A stretch of 32,000 bases of DNA from Candidatus Paracaedimonas acanthamoebae (GTDB taxonomy: Bacteria > Pseudomonadota > Alphaproteobacteria > Caedimonadales > Caedimonadaceae): contig CP008936.1 of assembly GCA_000743035.1 (NCBI GenBank), forward strand, positions 1,650,001-1,682,000, read 5' to 3'. A model generated the notes under the pieces. That model searched no databases. It was not told the origin of the DNA and saw nothing but the letters and a program-made list of their open reading frames with translations. Below, piece after piece: positions 2,377 to 18,806 of this stretch. The translations under genes were made by a program, and so were the position numbers. Each line of letters opens with the position of its first letter. The first letter of the stretch is position 1.

Positions 2377-2445
2377 AAACATACTTAGGATTAATACTTT
2401 AGTATTCTTTAAAAGCAATACACCAAAATAGGGTTTAATTGGGTT

Positions 2446-3996
2446 ATGCAAAATTTAAAAATGAATTTATTTCAAAAGATTGACCCTAAAGATCTAGAAA
2501 AAATAAATGGCGTAAAATTTACTTTTAGAGAAATTGATATTTTAGCTTTTATGTTTCATGGGAAATCAACTAAGAAAACAGCTTCTTTACTCTCAATCTC
2601 TCCGCGAACTGTTGAAAATCATGTGCGCAATATTATGGTGAAAGTTGAGTGTAATTCGCGCGAAGCTATAATAGATTTTATAGAAAAATCTAAAGAAGTT
2701 TATGTACTTAAAAAATATTATTCAAATTTAAGAATTGAATCAGCATTTAAAGAATGCTTAAGAGAAATTTCACTCTTAATGGAGAAGAAAGCTTTAAAGT
2801 GTAAAATTGAAACTATTGGGAATGAGTTTTGGGGCCATACGCTAGAAAGCTATCTCAAACTTGCGGGAGTTAACATTCTAAAGGGAAAAGAGCAAAAATC
2901 TAAAACTCTTGGGGCTTTCAAGACTGAAGAAGCTTCAATAGATTATGTACTTTGTCCTCTCACGAGCTTAGAAGCAGGGGAAATTTCCCTTATAAAAGAA
3001 AAATTTGGGTGTTATTTTCAACAAACTTCTCCATCGTTTCCTCCTTTAATTTTTCTCATTCAAAATAAAGAACTGAATAACTTTTCATCCCATCTGATAT
3101 TAAAAGACAACAAAAATGTAATAATGGTAGATTTTCAAGAGAATGATTATTTTTCATTTTTCGAACTTTTGAAAAAAATGCTAGCACCTCTTAGTTTAGA
3201 GAAAATAATTTTAAAATTTCTCAAGAAATGTGAAGAATTAAAGCTTACTTTAGAGACTGATTCTCTACCAAATACTCTAGCAGCCTCTTCTCCAGCGTTG
3301 AAACAAATCTCTCAAAATGTAGATGTAAATGATCATAAAAAGTTGAGATATTATTTAATAAGAGGACTCGCTTTTAGTCTTGTAGGGAGTTTGATCTTAT
3401 TTTTAGGCCTCTATCAACCTACAAACGTTAAACTTTCGTCAAAGAATATCATAAGATCTGACCTTCCTATTCCTGCTGAAACGATCCTTTTACCGCGTCC
3501 TCAAATACTCGCTCAAATCCAGGAAAAGTTAAGTAAAAAACAAGGCATTCAAGTTATTGCATTAGTGGGAATAGGAGGCGCTGGAAAGACAACAATTGCT
3601 CGCCAATATGCGCGCTTACAAAAAACAAATGTTATATGGGAAATAAATGCAGATACGAAAGAAAGCTTAATTAATTCATTTGAGAATCTTGTGTATGCTC
3701 TTTGTAAAACAAAAGAGGAAAAAAAGATATTAAGAGATCTTCAAGAGATAAAAAACCCTCAAGAAAGAGAGGAAAAAATAGTCCTTCTCTTGAAAGATAA
3801 GTTAAAAGCAATTTCAGAATGGTTGTTAATCTATGATAATGTTGAGAAGTTTACAGATATTCAGAGATATTTTCCTTATGATCCAATAAGTTGGGGGATG
3901 GGGAAAGTAATTATCACAAGTAGGGACAATAATATTGAAAATAACAGTTATGTGAGTCACGCTATTCAAGTCAAAGAATTAAGTATTAAGTATTAA
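2446..3996 (+). CDS. N-terminal fragment of a LuxR-HTH / NB-ARC (STAND NTPase) / TPR protein, truncated by a frameshift.
   Basis: - LuxR/GerE-type HTH: FTFREIDILAFMFHGKSTKKTASLLSISPRTVENHVRNIMVKV (aa ~25-68).
- Hydrophobic segment: GLAFSLVGSLILFLGLY (aa ~307-323).
- Walker A: GIGGAGKTT (nt 3568-3594).
- Walker B-like: LLIYDNVE.
- Sensor-like: KVIITSRD.
- The ORF stops inside the NB-ARC domain. Confidence 0.85.
   Translation: MQNLKMNLFQKIDPKDLEKINGVKFTFREIDILAFMFHGKSTKKTASLLSISPRTVENHVRNIMVKVECNSREAIIDFIEKSKEVYVLKKYYSNLRIESAFKECLREISLLMEKKALKCKIETIGNEFWGHTLESYLKLAGVNILKGKEQKSKTLGAFKTEEASIDYVLCPLTSLEAGEISLIKEKFGCYFQQTSPSFPPLIFLIQNKELNNFSSHLILKDNKNVIMVDFQENDYFSFFELLKKMLAPLSLEKIILKFLKKCEELKLTLETDSLPNTLAASSPALKQISQNVDVNDHKKLRYYLIRGLAFSLVGSLILFLGLYQPTNVKLSSKNIIRSDLPIPAETILLPRPQILAQIQEKLSKKQGIQVIALVGIGGAGKTTIARQYARLQKTNVIWEINADTKESLINSFENLVYALCKTKEEKKILRDLQEIKNPQEREEKIVLLLKDKLKAISEWLLIYDNVEKFTDIQRYFPYDPISWGMGKVIITSRDNNIENNSYVSHAIQVKELSIKY
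3982..3995 (+). repeat. 7-bp tandem duplication, AGTATTA|AGTATTA, that creates the stop and frameshift between the two STAND ORFs.
   Basis: The sequence reads GAATTA AGTATTA AGTATTA AAGAAAAA. Deleting one copy gives GAA TTA AGT ATT AAA GAA AAA CTA ATT CTT TTT ACT GAA ATT ATG, which joins ...QVKELSIK to EKLILFTEIMRIGN... in one frame. Confidence 0.85.
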
Positions 3997-4024: not shown

Positions 4025-5749
4025 ATGCGAATTGGAAATGTGCACCATTCTGAAATTAAATCTAAGAAGTTTTTGGACAACATTCCTCCTTTTCCTTTAG
4101 ATGTATCTACAGCAGCTTATTATTTAAAAGCAACAAATGTTTCTTTAGAGGGATATCTAAATCATTTAATTAGTTATAACAAGGAATTTGCAGCAACTCA
4201 GGAACATATCCTTAAGGAAGCCTCAGACTATACAAAAACGCGATATGGTATAATTACCTTATCTTTAAAAAAAATTATTGATACACAAAAAGAATTTGAA
4301 CCATTATTATTATTAATTAGCTTGTTAGATTCTCAAAACATCCCTAAAGCATTATTAGATGCTTGCGGAAATAGTTCACTTATTGATAGTCTTTTTTATC
4401 ATTTAAATAAGTATTCATTGATTGTTAATGAGTCTTATAGGAATTCAATTCCTGTATTTTCCATACACCGAAGCACTCAAAAAATAAGTTTGGCTTACCT
4501 CAAAAAAACCTTAGCCTTAGAGAAAAACAACCCTCTATTAGATAAGGTTGCTCATATATTTGAAAATTATGTGACAGAAATTATAGATAAAGAAGACTTT
4601 TTACAAATGAAGCTTCTATTATCTCAGGGCGATGCTTACTTAAGGCATGATGACCTCCTCAGAGATAATATTAAGAACAGTCTTAAAAGCTCTCTAGGAT
4701 GTATATATTATTATTTAAGTGATTATATAAAGGCTAAACAATTTCTTGAGGAAAGTCTTGTAAACTTAATAAAAGACTACCATAAAAATCATCATAAGGT
4801 CGCACGTATTTTAATGTATTTAGGAAATGTCTATAGAACCCTTGGGGATTGCGAAAAAGCAAAAAATTTACTTGAAGAGAGTCTTTCGATTTATGCTCAA
4901 TATCCTGGTAATTATATGGGGAATGGACGTGCTTTAGGATATTTGGGAATTATTTATAGAGGGCTAGGTGACTACTCAAAGGCAAGAAGCTTGCTTGAGA
5001 AAAGTCTTGGAATATATCAAGAGCATTCACAGAACAGTATTGGACATGCCTGGATTTTATCGCATTTAGGAAATACTTATCTAATATTAGGGAACTATGA
5101 GCAAGCGCGGATTTTACTTGAACAAAGCCTTGATATCTATAAAAAGCATTCTGAAGATTATGTTGGTGTTTCTTGGGTTCTTGGATATTTAGGAGATGCT
5201 TATAGAGCTTTAGGCGACTATAAAAAATCTCAAGAGTTACTTGAGCAAAGTCTTATTATTTGCCGAAAACATTTTCCTGAAAATCATGTCTATATCGCTT
5301 CTTCTTTAGCATATTTGGGAAATCTACATGCTGAAATAGGAGAGTATCAAATGGCACGCAACTTATTGGAAAAAAGTCTTGAAATTTCAGAAACAAGCTA
5401 TGGGAAGAATCATATACAAACGGCACGTATTTTGAGAAGTTTGGGACGAATTTATCTTTTGGAAGGAAAAATGCAAGAAGCTGAGAATTTCCTTCAAAAT
5501 TCTTTAAATATCTTTCAACAACATAAATATAGCGAAAGTTATATGTCTCTGGAAAACTTAGCAGACTTATATCTCATGAAATTTTCACAACAGCCTCTCT
5601 CCAATGATAGGCAGAAGTTTCATCAATCAAAAAATCAAGCTCTTGAGTATTTAAGGCAAGCGTTAGAGATTGTTAAAGCGCATTTCCCAAATGATTCTTC
5701 TCATATCATTAGAATTCAAAACAAATTAATGAATCAAGGCATTAAATAG
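4025..5749 (+). CDS. C-terminal fragment of the same STAND gene: the rest of the NB-ARC domain (GLPL-like motif) plus about 8 TPR repeats.
   Basis: - IPPFPLDVSTAAYYL matches the NB-ARC GxPLA motif.
- The repeated 40-42-aa units (LGNVYRTLGDCEKAKNLLEESLSIY, LGIIYRGLGDYSKARSLLEKSLGIY, LGNTYLILGNYEQARILLEQSLDIY, and others) are TPR_12-type.
- The frame stays open upstream of the ATG at 4025, back into the duplication. Confidence 0.85.
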   Translation: MRIGNVHHSEIKSKKFLDNIPPFPLDVSTAAYYLKATNVSLEGYLNHLISYNKEFAATQEHILKEASDYTKTRYGIITLSLKKIIDTQKEFEPLLLLISLLDSQNIPKALLDACGNSSLIDSLFYHLNKYSLIVNESYRNSIPVFSIHRSTQKISLAYLKKTLALEKNNPLLDKVAHIFENYVTEIIDKEDFLQMKLLLSQGDAYLRHDDLLRDNIKNSLKSSLGCIYYYLSDYIKAKQFLEESLVNLIKDYHKNHHKVARILMYLGNVYRTLGDCEKAKNLLEESLSIYAQYPGNYMGNGRALGYLGIIYRGLGDYSKARSLLEKSLGIYQEHSQNSIGHAWILSHLGNTYLILGNYEQARILLEQSLDIYKKHSEDYVGVSWVLGYLGDAYRALGDYKKSQELLEQSLIICRKHFPENHVYIASSLAYLGNLHAEIGEYQMARNLLEKSLEISETSYGKNHIQTARILRSLGRIYLLEGKMQEAENFLQNSLNIFQQHKYSESYMSLENLADLYLMKFSQQPLSNDRQKFHQSKNQALEYLRQALEIVKAHFPNDSSHIIRIQNKLMNQGIK

Positions 5750-6308
5750 AACAAAGTAACACTCGTTTCTGTTATTCAACCATGTAAATATATAAAGTAT
5801 TTTTTGATTTTTATCGAATTTTCTTGAATTTTGTATCATATTGTGGTAGCCTGATAGTATAGATGGTTAGATGATTTTCATCTCTTATGAAAACCTAAAA
5901 GATCTTCATAATTCTTCCATAAAATCCAACTGTCTCATTAAAATAATAAGGGAATTAAAAAAACCTAAGTTATTAAAGAGAATAAGCCTTTTAACGCTCT
6001 TTTTGAGCGAATACCCTCTCTTTGCCTTTTTCAGAGGTCGATTCCTCTGCAAAAAGAATAACTGAAGCGTCCTGATCAAACGCTTAACCCAGAAAATTTC
6101 GAATCTCTGGGGAGAGAAAAAGGTATGCCAACAGTTGAGTAAATGAGGATAATGATAGGCATGTCGTGAAATGGAAGAAACGATCTGTCCTGACCTCAAC
6201 CTCTCAAACAAAAGCAAAAGGCTTCCCAATTCCTTCCTGTGCACAAACTGCACAGGAAGGGAGAGGGGAAAACAATAAAAACAAGAAACATAAACAAGGA
6301 GATATAAA

Positions 6309-6581
6309 ATGATAAAAACACATGAACAAAAACCAAATGGTAAGAAAGAACTAGGGGCACAAAAACGTCTGGACCCATCAACAATCAAGAAAAGGGTGCT
6401 CAGTGCTGTTTTGAGGAGAGAAACAGGTTGTTTCAATCCCTCTCAAAGAGACAAACGTATGAAGGTCTATCAACAGAGCTTCAACCGCTGGTGGGACCTG
6501 ATTTTTGATCAGGGAAGCAGGAAACGAATGGCGATAGGCAACCAAGAGATGTGCATAGGTACCAGGAGATCCTATGCATAA
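6309..6581 (+). CDS. Possible small basic protein (90 aa) of unknown function. Doubtful.
   Basis: AAGGAG lies 7 nt upstream of the ATG (acaAGGAGatataaaATG). However, it sits in a strongly purine-rich, otherwise non-coding stretch where SD-like strings arise by chance. I recognise no domain. Confidence 0.25.
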   Translation: MIKTHEQKPNGKKELGAQKRLDPSTIKKRVLSAVLRRETGCFNPSQRDKRMKVYQQSFNRWWDLIFDQGSRKRMAIGNQEMCIGTRRSYA

Positions 6582-6638
6582 GACGTAGGATTATATGGAA
6601 GGGGTATAAGATATGAGTCAGAAGAGAAAAACACATGA

Positions 6639-6710
6639 ATCAAAAATTATCCCCTGACAAATAGACCCTAGGATGTTCTTTATGTTGGCGTAACGAATAA
6701 CCTAGTATAA
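6639..6710 (+). pseudogene. Relic of a GIY-YIG (UPF0213/YhbQ-like) nuclease gene.
   Basis: One frame reads ...YPLTNRP*DVLYVGVTNNLV*. The VLYVGVTNNL string is the signature N-terminal GIY-YIG block (Y-[IV]-L-x-n-LY-[IV]-G-[VI]-T-N-[ND]-L). An in-frame TAG lies at 6669-6671 and a TAA at 6708-6710. No recognisable continuation follows. Confidence 0.4.
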
Positions 6711-6855
6711 CGTTGCTTGCTAAAGTTGATCTTAACAAAGATAAGGACGGTTTTTCGTTTGTCTTGTAAGATAAAGAAGGTTTTAATGGCTACTTAAAAT
6801 ACGAGCGTTTTCTGTGCGGTATTAAACATACACGCCTGAGAGTTATAAGTATGAA

Positions 6856-7419
6856 TCAACTTTTGCTCATATCAATATCAGAACCAACAAATGGGATTTC
6901 TTTATTCCAAAATTTGTTTAGGCTATCCCACCATAAGCTAGTTTGAGACGTAAGTATTTTTGAAAACTTATCTAAATCATCGCTTCCGGTTAAACGAAAC
7001 TGTATTCCCTCTAATATGCCAATAACAGCCCACTCACTTACTTTCTCATCAGGATGTTTAATAAGACAATGAATCAAAGCTGAGATATTCCTTAATTCTT
7101 TCTGTAAAGGAGGCTTTACTTTAGGGTTATTGCTTGCCTCCTTGTATAAAGCAACGATATACTCTGCAAAGTCTCCGGCAATACTATAAGGCAAGTCCTT
7201 ATCATCAGAAGATAGAAAAATTTCTTCAAAAGCAGGACAAGTTTGTAAAACAATTTCATAAATTTGGCGTAAGGTAACCTTTGTAAAATATGAACTTTCA
7301 TACCTTTCTGTTAAGCTTTTACGCATTTTAATAAAGGAAACTCCATTCTTTTCAATAAACTCACCTTCAGGAATATATGAATTTTTATCAAAAAATTTAA
7401 TGCAGAGTCTACAGCACAA
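6856..7419 (-). CDS. Last ~35 aa of a GNAT fold followed by a ~150-aa domain of unknown function. This is the downstream part of a frameshifted GNAT-fusion gene.
   Basis: After its TTG start the ORF begins CCRLCIKFFDKNSYIPEGEFIEKNGVSFIKMRKSL. From KFFDKNSY... onward this is a typical GNAT C-terminal strand/helix (xFYxKNGYxxxGE...MxKxL). It then continues with TERYESSYFTKVTLRQIYEIV...WAVIGILEGIQ...WWDSLNKFW, which matches nothing I can name. Confidence 0.6.
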   Translation of the reverse strand: MCCRLCIKFFDKNSYIPEGEFIEKNGVSFIKMRKSLTERYESSYFTKVTLRQIYEIVLQTCPAFEEIFLSSDDKDLPYSIAGDFAEYIVALYKEASNNPKVKPPLQKELRNISALIHCLIKHPDEKVSEWAVIGILEGIQFRLTGSDDLDKFSKILTSQTSLWWDSLNKFWNKEIPFVGSDIDMSKS

Positions 7420-9214: not shown

Positions 9215-9907
9215 CTAACTTGATTTTATCAAAGACCCATCCTTGGGAGAATAAATATAAGGGCCTTCAATGCGTTTACCTTTCTCATATACCATATAAG
9301 AAGCAACATTTCCGTTTTCAAAATACTTCGTCGAATTTCCTTGCAGAAGCCCTTGTTCATAAGCTTCTGTTTGTAAAAGATTCCCTGATGGGTAATAAGC
9401 CTTCATAATGCCGTGCTTAATGCCCTTTTCATAGGGAATAGTTGCCGTAATGTAACCTAAGGGATTGTAGGTGATCATTTCCCCATGCATTTTCCCTTCG
9501 ATATAAGGAACTTCATGTTGAAGAGCGCCCCCTTTCGTATAAAATTTCGCAACCCCATGAATCTTTCCTTTTCGATAGGGAATTTCTGCTGAAATTATTC
9601 CTTTCTCATAGGTTTCAGCTAATCCCTCCAAAAGTCCTTCTTTAAAGTGATATTTACGGTGCGGTTTCCCTTCTTTATCGTAAACAAGAGTGGGGCCTTC
9701 CCGTAAACCATTCGAGAAGGTCGCTCGTTTAGTAATATTTCCTTTATTATCATAATATTCAGCAACTCCATTTCGTTGCCCCTCTTTAAAAGGAATCCGT
9801 CTTAATAGCTTTCCTTTTGCCGTTTTCATCTCTTGAACACTATCAAGAATCTCTGCGGTTTTTTGGCTCGCCGGAAGTTGCATTTGTTGAAGTTGCGTGT
9901 TGCTCAT
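9215..9907 (-). CDS. MORN-variant (MORN_2) repeat protein, YwqK-like.
   Basis: About 7 tandem 23-24-aa repeats of the form Y..G.....(a)..Y..G..hG. Examples: GQRNGVAEYYDNKGNITKRATFSNGLREGPTLVYDKEGK..., YRKGKIHGVAKFYTKGGALQHEVPYIEGKMHGEMITYNPLG..., YEKGIKHGIMKAYYPSGNLL... It has no signal peptide. It starts 15 nt after the vgrG stop on the same strand. Confidence 0.8.
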   Translation of the reverse strand: MSNTQLQQMQLPASQKTAEILDSVQEMKTAKGKLLRRIPFKEGQRNGVAEYYDNKGNITKRATFSNGLREGPTLVYDKEGKPHRKYHFKEGLLEGLAETYEKGIISAEIPYRKGKIHGVAKFYTKGGALQHEVPYIEGKMHGEMITYNPLGYITATIPYEKGIKHGIMKAYYPSGNLLQTEAYEQGLLQGNSTKYFENGNVASYMVYEKGKRIEGPYIYSPKDGSLIKSS

Positions 9908-9922
9908 TTTCTTTCTCTATTT

Positions 9923-12900
9923 TTAAGCTAATGTAACTGCTGCGCCTGTTATCTGAGTACTGCCTTCTCCTCCTATGGTTGCTGTAGCCTCACCTGCAAC
10001 TGTGACAACGGCTCCTGACATTGTCACACCTGCAGTTCCTTCAAGCATAAGCTCAGTTTCAGCCACCACATTAACTTCAGAAGCGTTCAATGTTGTTTCG
10101 CCCGTCGATTCAAACGTGGTTGCTCCCTCACTGGTAAGGGTTAAGCCAGCTGCGGACATTGTCGTTTCTCCTTCTGCAGAGATCGTCATCGCGGCACCTG
10201 CATTTACTGTCATTTCAGTGCCAGACTCAAGCGTTGTTGCGGCTTCACTTTGAAAAGTTGCAGCGCCTGTGCTTTTAATAGTGACCGTGCCGCCTACAAT
10301 AATTTCAAAATTACCATCAATCTTAAGCGTATAGTTGCCTGTAATTGACTCTTCTACATCCCCTGCCACTTTAATTGTTTGGTTTGCTTGTAAAGTTACG
10401 GATTGGTCACCTTGAACCATAATTGCTTGTGTGCCTTGTTGAATAGAAATTTCTTGGTTACCTTCTTCAACAATTGTTGTGTAGTTGCTTTTAATTTTTT
10501 CAAAGAAAAGTCCTTCTTTCACAAGAAGAGTTGCATCCCCATTTGTTAGCTCTTTGTAATCATTCCCTTCTTTTAGAACAAGAGAGTGATCCCCTTTTGT
10601 CAGGTGAGTGGTGATATTCCCTTCACTTAAATGAGTGTGGATATTTCCTTTTTCAAGCGTAAGTGTTGCATCCCCTTTCTCAATAAAATGATCCGAATTT
10701 CCTTCTTTTTGTTGGATAAAATAATCCCCTTTGTTCAGAAGTTCTAAATTATTTCCTTCTTCAATCTCAAGATAACGATCACCCTGGTTGATAAGGATGT
10801 TATAGTTGGCATCTTCCTCGCTTTTAAGCTGCATTGTACGACTTCCTTTGAGAAGAGTAAGATTATCATCTCCTTTCCCTGCAGGAAGATCTTGGCCTTT
10901 TGGTGTCGTTTTAGAGACCGACTCATCTTCTCCGGCTAAAACAACTTCTCGATTCCCACGATCAATCCACCACCAATAGCTTCCTTTTTTAACCCAATCA
11001 TTAACCGTCTCATTCACTCGTATTGTTAAATCCTTTTGTGAATGAAAGAAGACCTCTTCTGATTCTTTTAAATCTTCAAATCTTAACTCATTAAAGCCTT
11101 CTGGTCCTTTCTTTGTTGACCGGCTCTTAATCGTACTCTTTGTGGGCTGTTCAGGAAGATATGGCGGCATGTTATCTGAATTATAAACAGTCCCAATCAC
11201 GAGAGGACGATCCGGATTCCCTTCAAGGAACGTTACAACAACTTCCATCCCAACCCGTGGTGTGAAAAGAATCCCCCAATTATTTCCTGCCCATCCCTCA
11301 GCCACCCGAACCCAACAAGAGCTATCTTGTTCATCTTTAATATTTCCATCCTCTTGAGCGTTGTGAGTTTCTGATGGATCTTGTTCGTTTTGTGTTTCTT
11401 TTTCTAGCTGGCTTCCTTTACCGACATCAGTCCCGTTCGATTGGATATCCCAATGAAATCGAACTTTAATGCGACCATATTGATCTGTCCAAATTTCTTC
11501 ATTTTTGGGTCCAGTAACACGAGCTGTTTGGGTTGAATAAATTTTAGGCTTGGGTGTCTTGATGCCAGTTTTATAAGCAATACTAAAAGGAAATGCCGTA
11601 AACTGATTGCGATAATGACTATCATGAACCCCTAGACCACCTGTTATATTGGCTTCATGAATCACAGTATGAAGAACATAAAGCTTATTAACATCTTTTC
11701 GAGTATGGCCTCGCATTTGAAACTTATAGCCAGGTGCAAAAAAGGGAATGGTTGATGTTGCATCAACTGATTTACTCGGTAATTCATCCGCTTGAATTCT
11801 CAATGTTGAAACTGTTTCTAGCTTAACTTGTTTGGGCAGGTCCTCATGATCAAAAAGCCCAGGATAAGAGTAAACCTTTCCCCCTAATCCAGTCCCATTT
11901 GATAAGCTCGAAATCTTGGTCGAAGCCGTCGTAAAATTGTAATCAACAAGAGAATGAGATTTGGGAACTACTCGCTCAAGAACTTTACAAGTGATCAGCT
12001 TATTGAAATAATCAACGCCTGCAACGGCTTTCTCAAATTCCGCTGTTTGAGCCCCTGGGCAATCCTCATGACTTGAAGGCGCTTCACCCAAAACTAAAGT
12101 ATGTTGCCCATGCTTGTGCTTAAAATAGTAAAAAATTCCTTCTTCTTCGAGAAGACGACTTATAAAATCAAAAGAGCTTTCATTATACTGAACGCAATAT
12201 TCACGTGGAGTGCGACCACAATCCTTCGTTTTGTCTTCGATTTCAAGGACACCATTTTCTCTCAAAACTTGTTTGATGATATCAATGGCTGATTGGTTTT
12301 GAAAAATACGACAATCTTGCGTGAATTTTAGCATCCAGAGTTGAGGATAAATCTTTGCTTCATAATAAGTAACATTGTCATCACTTTTACGCGCCGTGTG
12401 AAGCTGCGTAAATTGCCCAATAACACCATTAAAATAACGAATTGTTGGGCTCTCTTCCTGAGGAGAAGAATCTTCATCTGCTAGAAAATCTTGGTCTTGG
12501 TTAATTCCTCGTTCTTTAATATAGCGCTTTCCCTCCTCCGCAGTATCTTCTTCACGGTATTGCTTAGCCCCTTGCTGTCCATCTTTTCCCTGAGAAGCAT
12601 TGGTATGTTTTTCATGACAATCAATTGAAATTGTTACCGTTTTCCCAATCATATCAGCAAAATTAATCGCTGGGTCATCTGAAATCATAAGAACGGTATA
12701 CTCAAAAGGTTCTGAAATCGTTTCAATCCCCTGAAATTGTTGCAAGACGAGATGACGATTTCTATTGTCTGTGGTAGAAAAATCGCTTTGAGATAGAGAG
12801 GTGCGCCGGTCCATTTGCCGGCGTTCTACCGCTCCTTCGCGGGACTCACTATTTTTACGCTGATTTTCAAACCGCTTTTCTGTTTTTGAAGAAATGTCTG

Positions 12901-13012
12901 TCCTGCGATGAAGCGGTAGATTTTCTGGAAGACTTGATTCTTCTTCACCTTGATAATCAATATCAATTTTTAGCGAAATAGGTTTTTGACGTACAAGCGT
13001 TGTTGAAACCAT
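9923..13012 (-). CDS. vgrG: Type VI secretion spike protein VgrG (gp27-like + gp5 OB-fold + beta-helix), 1029 aa, with unusual insertions and a long C-terminal helix extension.
   Basis: - N-terminal VgrG signature: FQGIETISEPFEYTVLM.
- gp27 core: IRYFNGVIGQF...YYEAKIYPQLWMLKFTQDCRIFQNQSAIDII...FDFISRLLEEEGIFYYF.
- gp5 OB-fold: GRIKVRFHWD...SCWVRVAEGWAGNNWGILFTPRVGMEVVVTFLEGNPDRPLVIGTVYN.
- Then EGN/KGD octad-like beta-helix repeats.
- GGAGG lies 3-4 nt before the ATG at 13012. Confidence 0.9.
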   Translation of the reverse strand: MVSTTLVRQKPISLKIDIDYQGEEESSLPENLPLHRRTDISSKTEKRFENQRKNSESREGAVERRQMDRRTSLSQSDFSTTDNRNRHLVLQQFQGIETISEPFEYTVLMISDDPAINFADMIGKTVTISIDCHEKHTNASQGKDGQQGAKQYREEDTAEEGKRYIKERGINQDQDFLADEDSSPQEESPTIRYFNGVIGQFTQLHTARKSDDNVTYYEAKIYPQLWMLKFTQDCRIFQNQSAIDIIKQVLRENGVLEIEDKTKDCGRTPREYCVQYNESSFDFISRLLEEEGIFYYFKHKHGQHTLVLGEAPSSHEDCPGAQTAEFEKAVAGVDYFNKLITCKVLERVVPKSHSLVDYNFTTASTKISSLSNGTGLGGKVYSYPGLFDHEDLPKQVKLETVSTLRIQADELPSKSVDATSTIPFFAPGYKFQMRGHTRKDVNKLYVLHTVIHEANITGGLGVHDSHYRNQFTAFPFSIAYKTGIKTPKPKIYSTQTARVTGPKNEEIWTDQYGRIKVRFHWDIQSNGTDVGKGSQLEKETQNEQDPSETHNAQEDGNIKDEQDSSCWVRVAEGWAGNNWGILFTPRVGMEVVVTFLEGNPDRPLVIGTVYNSDNMPPYLPEQPTKSTIKSRSTKKGPEGFNELRFEDLKESEEVFFHSQKDLTIRVNETVNDWVKKGSYWWWIDRGNREVVLAGEDESVSKTTPKGQDLPAGKGDDNLTLLKGSRTMQLKSEEDANYNILINQGDRYLEIEEGNNLELLNKGDYFIQQKEGNSDHFIEKGDATLTLEKGNIHTHLSEGNITTHLTKGDHSLVLKEGNDYKELTNGDATLLVKEGLFFEKIKSNYTTIVEEGNQEISIQQGTQAIMVQGDQSVTLQANQTIKVAGDVEESITGNYTLKIDGNFEIIVGGTVTIKSTGAATFQSEAATTLESGTEMTVNAGAAMTISAEGETTMSAAGLTLTSEGATTFESTGETTLNASEVNVVAETELMLEGTAGVTMSGAVVTVAGEATATIGGEGSTQITGAAVTLA

Positions 13013-16677: not shown

Positions 16678-16754
16678 TGGCGGGAGTGACGGGACTTGAA
16701 CCCGCGGCCTCCTGCGTGACAGGCAGGCGCTCTAACCAACTGAGCTACACCCCC
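16678..16754 (-). tRNA. tRNA-Asp (anticodon GUC) with encoded CCA.
   Basis: The minus strand folds as follows:
- GGGGGTG acceptor;
- TA;
- GCTC-AGTTGGTTA-GAGC D arm;
- CCTGC-CTGTCAC-GCAGG anticodon arm, loop C-U-GUC-A-C;
- GCGGG-TTCAAGT-CCCGT T arm;
- CACTCCC-G-CCA.
The acceptor pairs 7/7, with one G-U pair. Confidence 0.9.
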
Positions 16755-16831: not shown

Positions 16832-18244
16832 CTAATTACGCACTATAAAATCCTCATCTTTACAAAAACCTGGCGCACAACGTCCTACCATCTCATAAGC
16901 ATAATTGAAAGCATCCTCTTTAGCCTGATGAAAATCTTCTTTCCCTGGGATTTGAGGACAGAGAAATAAAGTCCCAAATTCAGTTTCTTCCCAATTAATT
17001 GACCTTAAATAGTCATAAAACGCTTCTTCATGCATTTGACTTATAGTAATTTTTGTATCTTCACTGTCTTCAGCATCTGCAAACCAACTTGCCTCATTCA
17101 TAAATGGCTGAAATTTTTTTGAAAACATTATTTCTTTTAAAGCTTCCCTGTAGGGAATTTCCTTTTGAGGAACATTGTCACTGGGAGCTGTCAGTTGCAT
17201 CCAATAATTTAGCAAGCGACTTTTCGATGGGATATTATAATGATAAAAGGCTTTAAATGTTGGTTCTTTTTTAAGAGAAACTGGACTGTTTGCAGGCTCA
17301 TTTTTTTGATTTGTATCCTCCGCAGCCACCGTCTGAACATGGATTTCTTTCTTCTCTGATGATGTACTTATTGTGCAAATTGAGCCTTCAGAAAGAGGAC
17401 TTTCAAGCTTTTCCTCTTCTAAAAACTCCTCTTGAGCAGACTTTTCTTGATCTTCTTCACGGAAAGATCCCAAAAGGGGGTCAGGATTAACAGGATCAGG
17501 TTCCATGGACGGCATTTCGTTTCCACCTTTTAGGTAAAAAGAAACGCTATCGTTGAGAGGTGCTAGATTTAAGGGATTTATACCCTCTTCAGTAACAGTC
17601 TGAGCAAAGGGATCTTCTTTTTCTGGCGTAGTCTCAATATTATGAGCTAAAGGCGCAGAAAGAGGATTTTTATGTTTTTGCTCCTCTAGCAAAGCCTTTA
17701 AAATACTTTGGGTGAAACTTTCTTGAACGTCTCCAAGAGAGGATACAAAGAGAGGCTCAGGATTAAAAGGATCAGATTTTATAAAATACATTTCATTCCC
17801 ACCTTTTAAATGAAAAGAAACGTCATTGCTCGGAAATACCGGCGAGGCCTTTAAAATGAGCGCTTCACTATCCATTATTCCAGGAAATAAATCACCATTA
17901 TTTTTCAAAACATTAACAATAAATTCGTGAGAATTTAAAGGAGATTTAAAAGGGCGCTCTATTTGTAGATCGGATGAAGCTTGCTTTGCTGAATCCCTAA
18001 AATAAATGCGAAAAAGAGGTAATACTTCCTTAAGGGCAGCTTCATAAGCTTGGTTAGTTTGTAGGTCTTCTTCTTGGATGTCATAAGAAGTGTTAGCAAA
18101 GTTATTTCTTTGAGAGTGTTGAGAATAATGGGCAAAAACAGCGATTTGCAAAAAAGTAATCATAAATAAAATGTTTGGAAATTCAGGTATAAACTTAAAA
18201 TTTTTAGTCAATGCCTGAAAAGTAAATTGCATGGCTTGTCGCAT
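16832..18244 (-). CDS. Hypothetical membrane-anchored protein (470 aa) with an internal duplicated motif. It is the only gene downstream of the cobalamin riboswitch.
   Basis: - It is a long open frame in AT-rich DNA.
- N-terminal hydrophobic segment: FPNILFMITFLQIAVFAHY.
- Two copies of [ND]DVSF[HY]LKGGNEM...DP[FV]NP[ED]PL.
- Acidic linker.
- Cys-containing C-terminal region: ...LFLCPQIPGK...GRCAPGFC.
- I recognise no family. Confidence 0.7.
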   Translation of the reverse strand: MRQAMQFTFQALTKNFKFIPEFPNILFMITFLQIAVFAHYSQHSQRNNFANTSYDIQEEDLQTNQAYEAALKEVLPLFRIYFRDSAKQASSDLQIERPFKSPLNSHEFIVNVLKNNGDLFPGIMDSEALILKASPVFPSNDVSFHLKGGNEMYFIKSDPFNPEPLFVSSLGDVQESFTQSILKALLEEQKHKNPLSAPLAHNIETTPEKEDPFAQTVTEEGINPLNLAPLNDSVSFYLKGGNEMPSMEPDPVNPDPLLGSFREEDQEKSAQEEFLEEEKLESPLSEGSICTISTSSEKKEIHVQTVAAEDTNQKNEPANSPVSLKKEPTFKAFYHYNIPSKSRLLNYWMQLTAPSDNVPQKEIPYREALKEIMFSKKFQPFMNEASWFADAEDSEDTKITISQMHEEAFYDYLRSINWEETEFGTLFLCPQIPGKEDFHQAKEDAFNYAYEMVGRCAPGFCKDEDFIVRN

Positions 18245-18344
18245 GGCTAATCGAGCCCCTTTATTTAATATGGTTAAAGGCTGTCACCAACGAGGATTTC
18301 GCTTTCGTTTGTCTTCACCGCCAAACAAAGAGATGACATTTAAA

Positions 18345-18511
18345 GGCAGGTTTCCTGGCTGAGCCGATCCTTAAGTGACCTTCCCAGCTTGAGCCAGTGG
18401 CATTTCACTTAAACGAGCTTCTTACAGTTGCGGGAGCAGCTACATTTTGCGCTTTGTATTAAACAAGCGTTATTGTATTCCCTTTTAACTCTTATGAGCA
18501 CCCTTAATACC
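18345..18511 (-). promoter_or_regulatory. Cobalamin (AdoCbl/B12) riboswitch aptamer.
   Basis: The minus strand reads GGUAUUAAGGGUGCUC..UUAAAAGGGAAUACA-[hairpin CGCUUGU..ACAAAGCG]-AAAAUGUAGCUGCUCCCGCAACUGUAAGAAGCUCG...AUGCCACUGGCUCAAGCUGGGAAGGUCACUUAAGGAUCGGCUCAGCCAGGAAACCUGCC. The blocks AAAGGGAA, GCnGCnCCCGCAACUGUAA, GCCACUGG...GGGAAGG and the B12 box AGCCAGGAAACCUGCC match the conserved cores of RF00174 as I remember them. Confidence 0.85.
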
Positions 18512-18515
18512 AAAG

Positions 18516-18543
18516 ATCATAATTTAAAACGAAAGAGAGTCAA
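18516..18543 (-). promoter_or_regulatory. Predicted sigma70-type promoter for the riboswitch transcript.
   Basis: The minus strand reads TTGACT-16 nt-TATGAT. The -10 element ends about 5-7 nt before the first G of the aptamer (ctttGGUAUU). Confidence 0.45.
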
Positions 18544-18652
18544 GAGAGAAGAATCATAAAATTTTTACATTTTAAATCAATTAGTTACTAAAATTTGATT
18601 TTATCTTTTTTTAGGTTATTTTATGAGCTATTCACTGCAGACTTTCAAGACT

Positions 18653-18753: not shown

Positions 18754-18784
18754 TAAAAAAAAGCCCTAGGAAGATCCCAGGGCT
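18754..18784 (-). terminator. Rho-independent terminator of ppiC.
   Basis: On the minus strand, about 25 nt after the stop, the sequence is AAAAAGCCCTGGG-atcttc-CTAGGGCTTTTTTTT: a GC stem followed by a T8 run. Confidence 0.7.
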
Positions 18785-18806
18785 TTTTACAAGATCCGTC
18801 AATACC

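Follow-up and report, generated by a model that had tools for sequence, protein, structure and literature searches.

A cobalamin riboswitch paired with an undescribed family of putative envelope proteins in Candidatus Paracaedimonas acanthamoebae and related Alphaproteobacteria

Corrinoid riboswitches act on genes for cobalamin biosynthesis, cobalamin uptake, B12-independent isozymes and other functions, and all but one of those tested repress their targets (PMC10327014). Here we analyse such an RNA in Candidatus Paracaedimonas acanthamoebae, a member of the Holosporales that lives as an obligate symbiont in the cytoplasm of Acanthamoeba and has a genome of 1.7 Mb with 38% GC (PMC11909080; PMC8163844). 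The RNA lies in a stretch of 32,000 nucleotides of contig CP008936.1 (positions 1,650,001 to 1,682,000; called the window below, in whose own coordinates all of its features are given), on the minus strand, directly before the gene of a 470-residue protein. What is new is the undescribed protein family to which this product belongs, and its control by a known sensor that carries a new variant of the expression platform.

The closest described counterparts of the RNA are the E. coli btuB and env8 riboswitches, which act on translation through an L5-L13 interaction. Like these, the window leader has an RF00174 aptamer, an L5 loop with the sequence UCCCG that pairs with the loop of a downstream P13 hairpin, no terminator, and a Shine-Dalgarno sequence that can be sequestered. 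It differs from them in that P13, together with an outer helix and a small hairpin, makes up a conserved three-way module placed 40-60 nt before the Shine-Dalgarno sequence, in that the predicted sequestering strand is the 3' half of this module in most lineages, and in that the target is no known transporter. The L5-L13 kissing loop is also shared with the Priestia metE riboswitch. A further point of comparison is the activating cobT riboswitch of Alkalihalobacillus halodurans, which likewise depends on the kissing loop and in which the ligand-stabilised P13 is compatible with the 'on' state (PMC10327014). The cobT switch is transcriptional and its P13 serves as the antiterminator, whereas control here is most likely translational and activation is only a predicted option.

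BtuG, BtuH, BtuM and CbrT are reportedly B12-uptake proteins that were recognised through riboswitch association. The product of the window gene resembles them as an uncharacterised, putative envelope protein behind a cobalamin riboswitch, with a predicted extracytoplasmic location; it differs from them in showing no similarity of sequence or fold and no adjacent transporter genes, and B12 binding is conjectural in its case. In architecture it recalls TonB, TolA and ZipA, with an anchor helix that contains polar residues, a long and variable spacer rich in prolines or acidic residues, and a small globular domain at the C-terminus. Unlike those proteins, it has no match to TonB_C or any other Pfam family, its C-terminal domain is predicted to be all-helical, it carries no S-x3-H motif as TonB and TolA do, and some family members have almost no linker (P0013, 185 aa; P0021, 192 aa).

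The presence of such a switch in an endosymbiont is notable because the cobalamin riboswitch is among those repeatedly lost in host-dependent bacteria (PMC4779614) and Rickettsia possess no B12-dependent enzymes (PMC5615194). Our literature search turned up no paper that connects Holosporales or Paracaedimonas with cobalamin or riboswitches, nor any statement on B12 metabolism for the group.

The riboswitch, its transcription unit and the linked gene family

An initial annotation, made by a model from the sequence alone, had proposed that a cobalamin riboswitch controls an uncharacterised gene in this region. A scan with the Rfam covariance models finds RF00174 over its full length (model positions 1-189 of 189) at 18520..18328 on the minus strand, with 86.2 bits against a gathering threshold of 31.5 and an E-value of 3.8e-20. 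The four sequence blocks quoted as hallmarks are all present: AAAGGGAA; GCUGCUCCCGCAAC in the P5/L5 region (18440..18427, minus strand), which holds the UCCCG kissing-loop consensus; GCCACUGG (18401..18394, minus strand); and the B12 box AGCCAGGAAACCUGCC (18360..18345, minus strand), the core of which, GCCAGGARACCTGCC, precedes the family gene in 17 loci. The aptamer motifs GCCAGGARACCUGCC, GCCACUG and AAAAGGGAA are invariant or nearly so across lineages. Judged by these sequence features, the RNA is a bona fide cobalamin riboswitch, and corrinoid binding is predicted.

The near-consensus promoter TTGACT-16-TATGAT, also part of the initial annotation, lies at 18543..18516 (minus strand). It is the best sigma-70-like site of the region, with 10/12 matches, and both of its hexamers are invariant in the five orthologous loci L001-L005 (L and P numbers are our handles for loci and proteins). 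Support for it comes from this conservation, as shuffled sequence contains at least as many promoter-like sites in total as the region does. A second promoter-like site, TTGATT-16-TATGAT (18553-18580, minus strand; 9/12 matches), stands 37 nt upstream of the main one and is less conserved in the orthologues. Further upstream, an intrinsic terminator with a 14-bp stem containing six G-C pairs, followed by a T run, closes the gene of a PpiC-type peptidyl-prolyl isomerase (PPIase) at 18788..18758 (minus strand). With their own promoter and this terminator behind them, the riboswitch and the open reading frame (ORF) form a separate transcription unit, in keeping with the single-gene unit first proposed. 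The ORF, 470 codons at 18244..16832 (minus strand), is 100% identical to the NCBI entry 'hypothetical protein IM40_08910' of Ca. Paracaedimonas acanthamoebae. The start codon ATG follows the end of the Rfam match by 84 nt and the B12 box by 100 nt, which agrees with the earlier estimate of about 100 nt.

Relatives of this protein are few. A word-indexed search of 5.8 billion proteins returned only four, and an exhaustive HMMER profile search, run against 1.84 billion cluster representatives, gave 30 matches, of which about 20 are distant proteins of 185-504 aa; profile hits on the C-terminal domain had E-values between 1e-29 and 1e-8. Two word-indexed alignment searches added almost nothing, and a protein-pattern scan of metagenomes for the family found nothing. 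A tblastn search of plasmids and phages gave no match, and there is thus no sign of a mobile-element origin. From these matches the family appears to be confined to protist-associated, Holosporales-like Alphaproteobacteria.

Linkage between gene and riboswitch was counted over the distinct family genes with readable upstream DNA (n=16). The idea that orthologues keep the riboswitch is borne out: RF00174 lies directly upstream of 14 of the 16, including homologues with 20-27% identity. It scores 72-99 bits in the window, L001-L005, L006/L007, L008, L009, L010/L011, L012, L014, L019, L022 and L027. Four close orthologues occupy the same position, after the SecA and PPIase genes and before tRNA-Asp and efp, with RF00174 at 87.6-92.6 bits. 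The distant members with the riboswitch, which span the whole range of 72-99 bits, are P0010 (L006, an NCBI assembly), those of three metagenome-assembled genomes named 'Alphaproteobacteria bacterium' in GTDB (L007-L009), P0026 (L010/L011), P0027 (L012), P0024 (L014) and P0016 (L027); in these the 3' end of the aptamer is ~80-100 nt before the start codon. At the last of these loci, a public call of a 57-aa protein (L027 5679-5852, minus strand) overlaps the aptamer (5728-5920, plus strand) and is almost certainly spurious. A lineage-specific leader probe brought up three more metagenome riboswitch loci, and where the downstream DNA was available (L019, L022), a family gene follows.

Neighbouring genes differ in every distant lineage, with no B12-related gene among them. 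They include arginase, an aminotransferase and accA; aspartyl-tRNA synthetase and AcrB; BioY and three EamA genes; tyrosyl-tRNA synthetase; a TLC translocase and a Sel1-repeat protein; and cytochrome bd. No conserved partner gene was found near family members, and a candidate for a shared partner, proteins of 553 aa and 577 aa beside two members, was dropped as the two are mutually unrelated. In two loci, the family gene is directly preceded by EamA genes of the same strand: three tandem EamA transporter genes with BioY in L010 (2875-5673, plus strand), and one EamA gene with a SPOUT methyltransferase gene at the P0009 locus. A link to S-adenosylmethionine or one-carbon metabolism drawn from these neighbours is speculative.

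Since the linkage is kept at such low identities and among unrelated neighbours, the RNA and the gene form an ancient, self-contained unit, and the family gene has travelled with its riboswitch as one piece. This ancient and usually maintained pairing, as read from the genomes, is the strongest evidence tying the role of the protein to B12 status.

Leader RNA and the mode of control

Conservation of the leader extends beyond the Rfam aptamer. Among close relatives the leader is 83-92% identical, first codons included, and the start codon, first codons and Shine-Dalgarno sequence are conserved in the orthologues. A conserved post-aptamer module occupies 18337..18283 (minus strand); in the alifold consensus it consists of an outer helix, GUCAUC/GAUGAC or GUCAUC/GGUGAC, around the P13 hairpin and a small GCGA/UCGU hairpin. 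P13 itself (18330..18302, minus strand) reads CUUCGUUUGG-CGGGAAAGA-CAAACGGAAG and carries the L13 loop GGCGGUGAAGA. Pairing in the module was counted over ten leaders, with slid partners and 500 shuffles as controls. Standard pairs make up 93.7% of cells, compared with 35-55% when the partners are slid; compensatory changes occur at 4 pairs, and the covariation score was equalled by 1 of the 500 shuffles.

The P13 loop, GCGGG(A), has the complement of the L5 loop, (U)CCCGC, and the UCCCG of L5 corresponds to the published kissing-loop consensus (PMC10327014). The resulting helix of five pairs has 94% of its cells paired, with one compensatory change from C:G to U:A in the most divergent leader. 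Because most of its columns are invariant, this comparison gives modest support to a kissing loop that would join the aptamer to the expression platform. In fold energy the leader is no different from shuffled sequence (z = +0.43 and -0.34), and our structural claims therefore draw on conservation and covariation instead. We also considered P1, extended into the GUCAUC strand, as the switching element and dropped this idea, as such an extension is not conserved across lineages.

How the leader could act on its gene is best seen in the region of the Shine-Dalgarno sequence and its sequestering partner (18282..18245, minus strand), which is nearly invariant in close orthologues. The initial annotation had noticed no strong stem followed by a U-tract, and indeed no terminator-like site exists between the aptamer and the ATG. 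It had also pointed to a pairing able to cover the Shine-Dalgarno sequence. This pairing, AGCCUUUA (18282..18275) with UAAAGGGGCU (18263..18254), has -8.5 kcal/mol and belongs to the minimum-energy fold of the platform; in addition, the 3' end of a small hairpin, GGCUCGAUUAGCC, stops 1 nt short of the AUG. Every lineage has helices that sequester the Shine-Dalgarno sequence (-8.5 to -15.5 kcal/mol), and these show shifts of register as well as compensatory changes (GAUGAUA/UAUCA in L012, CUUCUCC/GGAGA in L010, UAGAUGA/UCAUCUA in L008 and L027). Given these helices and a leader free of terminators, translational control is the most likely mode, rather than termination, as had been suggested.

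The sign of control is a separate question, and the lineages differ in what they predict. In the clade of the window, AGCCUUUA resembles the 3' strand of P1 and can alternatively pair with the P1 5' strand (-10.3 kcal/mol). With ligand bound, P1 would close, the mimic AGCCUUUA would be freed and the Shine-Dalgarno sequence would be sequestered; in the ligand-free RNA, the free P1 5' strand would hold the mimic. The pairing AGCCUUUA/UAAAGGGGCU directly after the module thus fits the classical layout of repression. In distant lineages, sequestration falls to the 3' half of the module itself, (G)UCUC(G)U..GAUGAC, which pairs in two parts, with a copy of the type CGUCA or UCAUCUA and with a GGAGA/GGGAG Shine-Dalgarno sequence, at -13 to -15.5 kcal/mol. 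There the sequestering helix and the outer helix of the module (-9 kcal/mol) exclude each other, and the outer helix is compatible with P13. By the rules of PMC10327014 this layout would predict activation by B12, unless docking of P13 on L5 clashes sterically with the three-way junction. We lean towards repression by B12, which has somewhat the better of the odds, since all but one of the characterised corrinoid riboswitches repress. The alternative leader structures and their conservation can be read directly from the aligned leaders, and the structure that B12 would favour is our inference.

The controlled protein and its genomic setting

The 470-aa protein begins with a conserved hydrophobic helix, a putative signal-anchor at residues 18-40 (18193..18125, minus strand), whose motif is conserved throughout the family (consensus ..INTFFALSIASYYV..HH.P; FPNILFMITFLQIAVFAHY in the window protein) and includes the polar residues N, S/T, Y and H. 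The initial annotation had called it signal-anchor-like, and this description stands in part. The helix is conserved, and the net charge on its N-side (+3 in the window protein, +1 to +3 in most members) fits the positive-inside rule and an N-in orientation; its hydrophobicity is marginal for a transmembrane span, with a best 19-residue Kyte-Doolittle mean of 1.59 in the window protein and 0.8-2.1 in the family. On this basis membrane anchoring is plausible.

A linker of very variable length and sequence follows, from ~20 to 300 aa across the family and rich in prolines and serines or acidic. The duplicated motif and the acidic linker described earlier are both present in the window protein: a 25-aa repeat occurs as VSFHLKGGNEMYFIKSDPFNPEPLF at residues 142-166 (17821..17747, minus strand) and as VSFYLKGGNEMPSMEPDPVNPDPLL at residues 234-258 (17545..17471, minus strand), with 16/25 identical positions, and D+E amount to 24% over residues 259-325. 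Within the Paracaedimonas clade, this repeat, SF(Y/H)xKGGNEMxSxEPDPxNPxxLF, is found in 1-3 copies among close orthologues. One member (L009 7035-8390, plus strand; also P0018) carries a Biotin_lipoyl domain in its linker (residues 258-315, E 4.7e-14) with an MKM string like the biotin-attachment motif; accA lies beside it on the other strand, maybe by coincidence.

The family is defined by its C-terminal domain of ~135 aa (residues 331-466; 17254..16847, minus strand), as delimited by the profile search, the alignment and the structure prediction. Its consensus reads W.TY..S..LL.FWLMKLAPG...EIPFR.ALI.TLLS..FQP.I...WE and, after an acidic stretch, R..F...Y...I.W..T.F..LF...ED.HQVNE.AY.YAY.FP..LG...Y.DEDF. 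Nearly invariant are the aromatic residues W387, W418, Y336, Y412 and Y450, together with R366, H439 and D465. The cysteines noted in this domain do exist (C429, C456, C461), and they are not conserved in the family. AlphaFold2 with a 26-sequence alignment predicts residues 331-466 as all-helical with a predicted local distance difference test (pLDDT) of 90-97, a helix at residues 21-49 with a pLDDT of ~75, and a disordered middle; a run with 5 sequences was uninformative (pLDDT 39.7).

We found no known relative of this domain. The window protein has no match in Pfam or NCBIfam, and Pfam searches of all 26 family members returned only the Biotin_lipoyl insert of the one member, with no match to TonB_C (PF03544) in any of them. 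A profile search against PDB sequences gave nothing significant (best E 0.035, a beta-glucosidase), and neither did Foldseek with the predicted domain against the PDB (best E 2.3) or BFVD (best E 0.085). The absence of resemblance to btuB, btuF, metE or nrd products that had been remarked on holds for known btu, cob, metE and nrd proteins alike. There is also no match to the classical B12-binding domain PF02310, which is Rossmann-like with a DxHxxG motif; a loose D-x-H-x-x-(N/K) string surrounds the nearly invariant H439 within the helical domain. As far as the predicted model can be compared, the fold of the domain appears to be undescribed.

The gene evolves unevenly. Measured against close orthologues, the ratio of nonsynonymous to synonymous substitution rates (dN/dS) is 0.25-0.50 over the full length; for the C-terminal domain it is 0.09-0.11 in two of three comparisons (against L001 and L003). 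These values mark it as a genuine coding gene under purifying selection; in the L002/L005 lineage, dN/dS of the same domain reaches 0.56. Set against its neighbours, the ORF is only 20-54% identical where SecA, PPIase, elongation factor P (EF-P) and inositol monophosphatase (IMPase) are 81-95% identical. We compared amino acids with the window proteins and, for the leader, nucleotides; in L001 and L003 the retrieved DNA does not include efp. SecA, PPIase, ORF and leader are, in that order, 92%, 91%, 54% and 92% identical in L001; 89%, 84%, 42% and 90% in L002 (EF-P 95%); 87%, 81%, 36% and 88% in L003; and 88%, 89%, 20% and 83% in L022 (EF-P 94%). In the ORF of L022 (~6856..5880, minus strand), the N-terminal motif alone is clearly recognisable, and the rest is marginal to the family profile (hhalign E 0.029). 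Deep conservation combined with episodic rapid change makes the protein resemble host-interface proteins, not typical B12 enzymes or transporters. In L005 two overlapping ORFs, of 232 and 274 aa (2407-3901, plus strand), stand in place of the single gene behind an intact riboswitch (89.1 bits); this split may reflect a frameshifted pseudogene or an assembly error.

Around the unit, the window encodes the housekeeping proteins SecA, the PpiC-type PPIase, EF-P, IMPase, leucyl-tRNA synthetase and a porin, as well as the endosymbiont-typical VgrG with a MORN-repeat protein and a LuxR/NB-ARC/TPR STAND protein; no B12-related gene is among these neighbours. A whole-window Rfam scan detected only RF00174 and one tRNA. 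The latter, tRNA-Asp(GUC) at 16678..16754 (minus strand), lies 78 nt past the stop of the ORF and outside the regulated unit; it is kept in the syntenic L002, L003 and L022 and absent after distant family members. We found no clear minus-strand terminator between the ORF stop and this tRNA, and it may be co-transcribed with the riboswitch mRNA.

Elsewhere in the window, a LuxR-helix-turn-helix and NB-ARC STAND NTPase of 516 aa (2446-3996, plus strand) is followed 29 nt on by a TPR protein of 574 aa (4025-5749, plus strand). The same LuxR-helix-turn-helix/NB-ARC/TPR architecture occurs in one ORF of 1074 aa in L009 (273-3497, minus strand), and in the window it may have been split in two. A VgrG spike protein of type VI secretion with 1029 aa (9923-13012, minus strand), with VgrG also present in the syntenic L002, precedes the 230-aa MORN-repeat protein (9215-9907, minus strand), a possible cargo or adaptor. 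Between 5906 and 9047 there are only short ORFs (one of unknown type with 176 aa, a DUF7674 protein, and two GNAT acetyltransferase-like proteins of 117 and 140 aa on opposite strands), and this part may be partly degraded.

Possible functions of the riboswitch-gene unit

The explanation that we favour, at a probability of roughly 40%, is that the gene encodes an envelope protein for the acquisition or handling of cobalamin that would be made at low intracellular B12 and would presumably contact the vitamin. It is suggested by the conserved riboswitch pairing, by a small non-catalytic domain that is unlike a B12-independent isozyme, and by the B12-supplemented medium of the host, as Acanthamoeba culture medium contains added B12 (PMC13070001). 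In such a system, the riboswitch with its L5-L13 kissing loop, transcribed from its own promoter, would govern translation initiation of the single gene. The product would probably have a short cytoplasmic N-terminus followed by a signal-anchor helix in N-in/C-out orientation, and a disordered linker, acidic and rich in prolines and serines, would place the all-helical C-terminal domain outside the cytoplasm. There it would serve cobalamin acquisition or handling in the envelope of intracellular bacteria that do not produce B12.

Several points weigh against this explanation. The initial annotation had raised the possibility that orthologues sit beside btu or cob genes; no btu, cob or TonB-system gene adjoins any family member, and the protein has no similarity of sequence or fold to the known B12-binding or transport proteins BtuB, BtuF, BtuCD, BtuM, BtuG and CbrT. 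By our hydrophobicity estimates, the N-terminal helix falls below the usual value for a membrane span in many members. Two family lineages have no riboswitch: the aptamer is missing from the P0011 subgroup (L015 4651-4756, L016), where a terminator and a promoter lie ~100 nt upstream, a NamZ gene is adjacent and the protein ends in a CxDIxC string, and the 191 nt available before the P0022 gene (L013 1-191) contain no B12 box. Evolution far faster than the genomic background would be unusual for a cofactor-binding protein and more typical of one at the host interface. Finally, in most lineages the outer helix, which would oppose sequestration, can coexist with P13, an arrangement that would predict activation and not repression, the sign that a role in uptake requires.

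The last two of these points would suit a different use of the switch, the main rival, which we consider unlikely, in which B12 is a cue for the host or nutritional state and the riboswitch, possibly activating, determines when the cell makes a fast-evolving protein of the envelope or host interface that does not itself bind B12. This protein could be adhesin-like, secretion-associated or a factor of intracellular life that binds host proteins. The 20-54% identity of the ORF beside 87-92% for SecA and 94-95% for EF-P, the disordered linker with a repeat copy number of 1 to 3 and the C-terminal dN/dS of up to 0.56 in one lineage all point this way, as does the occurrence in endosymbiont-like genomes only, with neighbours that include a TLC ATP/ADP translocase, Sel1-repeat proteins and VgrG. 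The compatibility of outer helix and P13 is moreover the layout of the sole known activating corrinoid riboswitch, and that a riboswitch which host-dependent bacteria usually lose is retained here implies that it has a specific use (PMC4779614). On the other hand, no riboswitch is known to act as a pure environmental cue for a function unrelated to its ligand, characterised corrinoid riboswitches repress with the one exception, no secretion signal or effector domain was recognised in the protein, and the C-terminal domain is conserved over deep lineages with strong purifying selection in two of three comparisons. Quite improbable, in our estimate, is an accessory factor for a B12-sparing or B12-independent state, which could be the partner, chaperone or regulator of an envelope or metabolic process required only at B12 scarcity and would act outside uptake. 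B12-independent alternatives are a classic class of riboswitch targets, the conserved polar residues of the N-terminal helix suggest docking on a membrane partner, and EamA-family genes lie upstream on the same strand in two loci; yet the protein has no enzyme-like domain and no conserved partner gene nearby. That the riboswitch instead regulates tRNA-Asp and efp by read-through, or is a relic, with the ORF incidental, decaying or spurious, might be imagined from the shared strand of the ORF, tRNA-Asp, efp and the IMPase gene, from the missing clear minus-strand terminator after the ORF and from the split orthologue in L005. Distant riboswitch-bearing members, however, have wholly different downstream genes, often on the opposite strand, and the coding sequence is under selection, with dN/dS well below 1, a C-terminal domain that is recovered at E-values down to 1e-29 and predicted to fold confidently, and a conserved start codon, first codons and Shine-Dalgarno sequence; these observations essentially exclude it.

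Beside the favoured role in cobalamin acquisition or handling, we mention one further idea, which we regard as doubtful: the B12 riboswitch may be kept in order to couple the level of host-derived B12 to a rapidly co-evolving envelope or host-interface protein with a new fold. The protein could then be a new type of cobalamin-capture protein that strips B12 from the trafficking system of the host or, if the switch activates, B12 could serve as an 'I am inside a host' signal.

Searches by riboswitch association have repeatedly revealed missing parts of B12 biology. The case described here is a clean, conserved riboswitch-gene unit found only in uncultivable endosymbionts of B12-requiring protists, where riboswitches are usually lost, and its conserved three-way expression platform adds a new variant to kissing-loop regulation. 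Should the C-terminal domain bind no cobalamin, the unit would be a rare instance of riboswitch control over a function unrelated to the ligand; if it does bind cobalamin, it would represent a new B12-binding fold and would account for the way in which these bacteria compete for the vitamin with their host.

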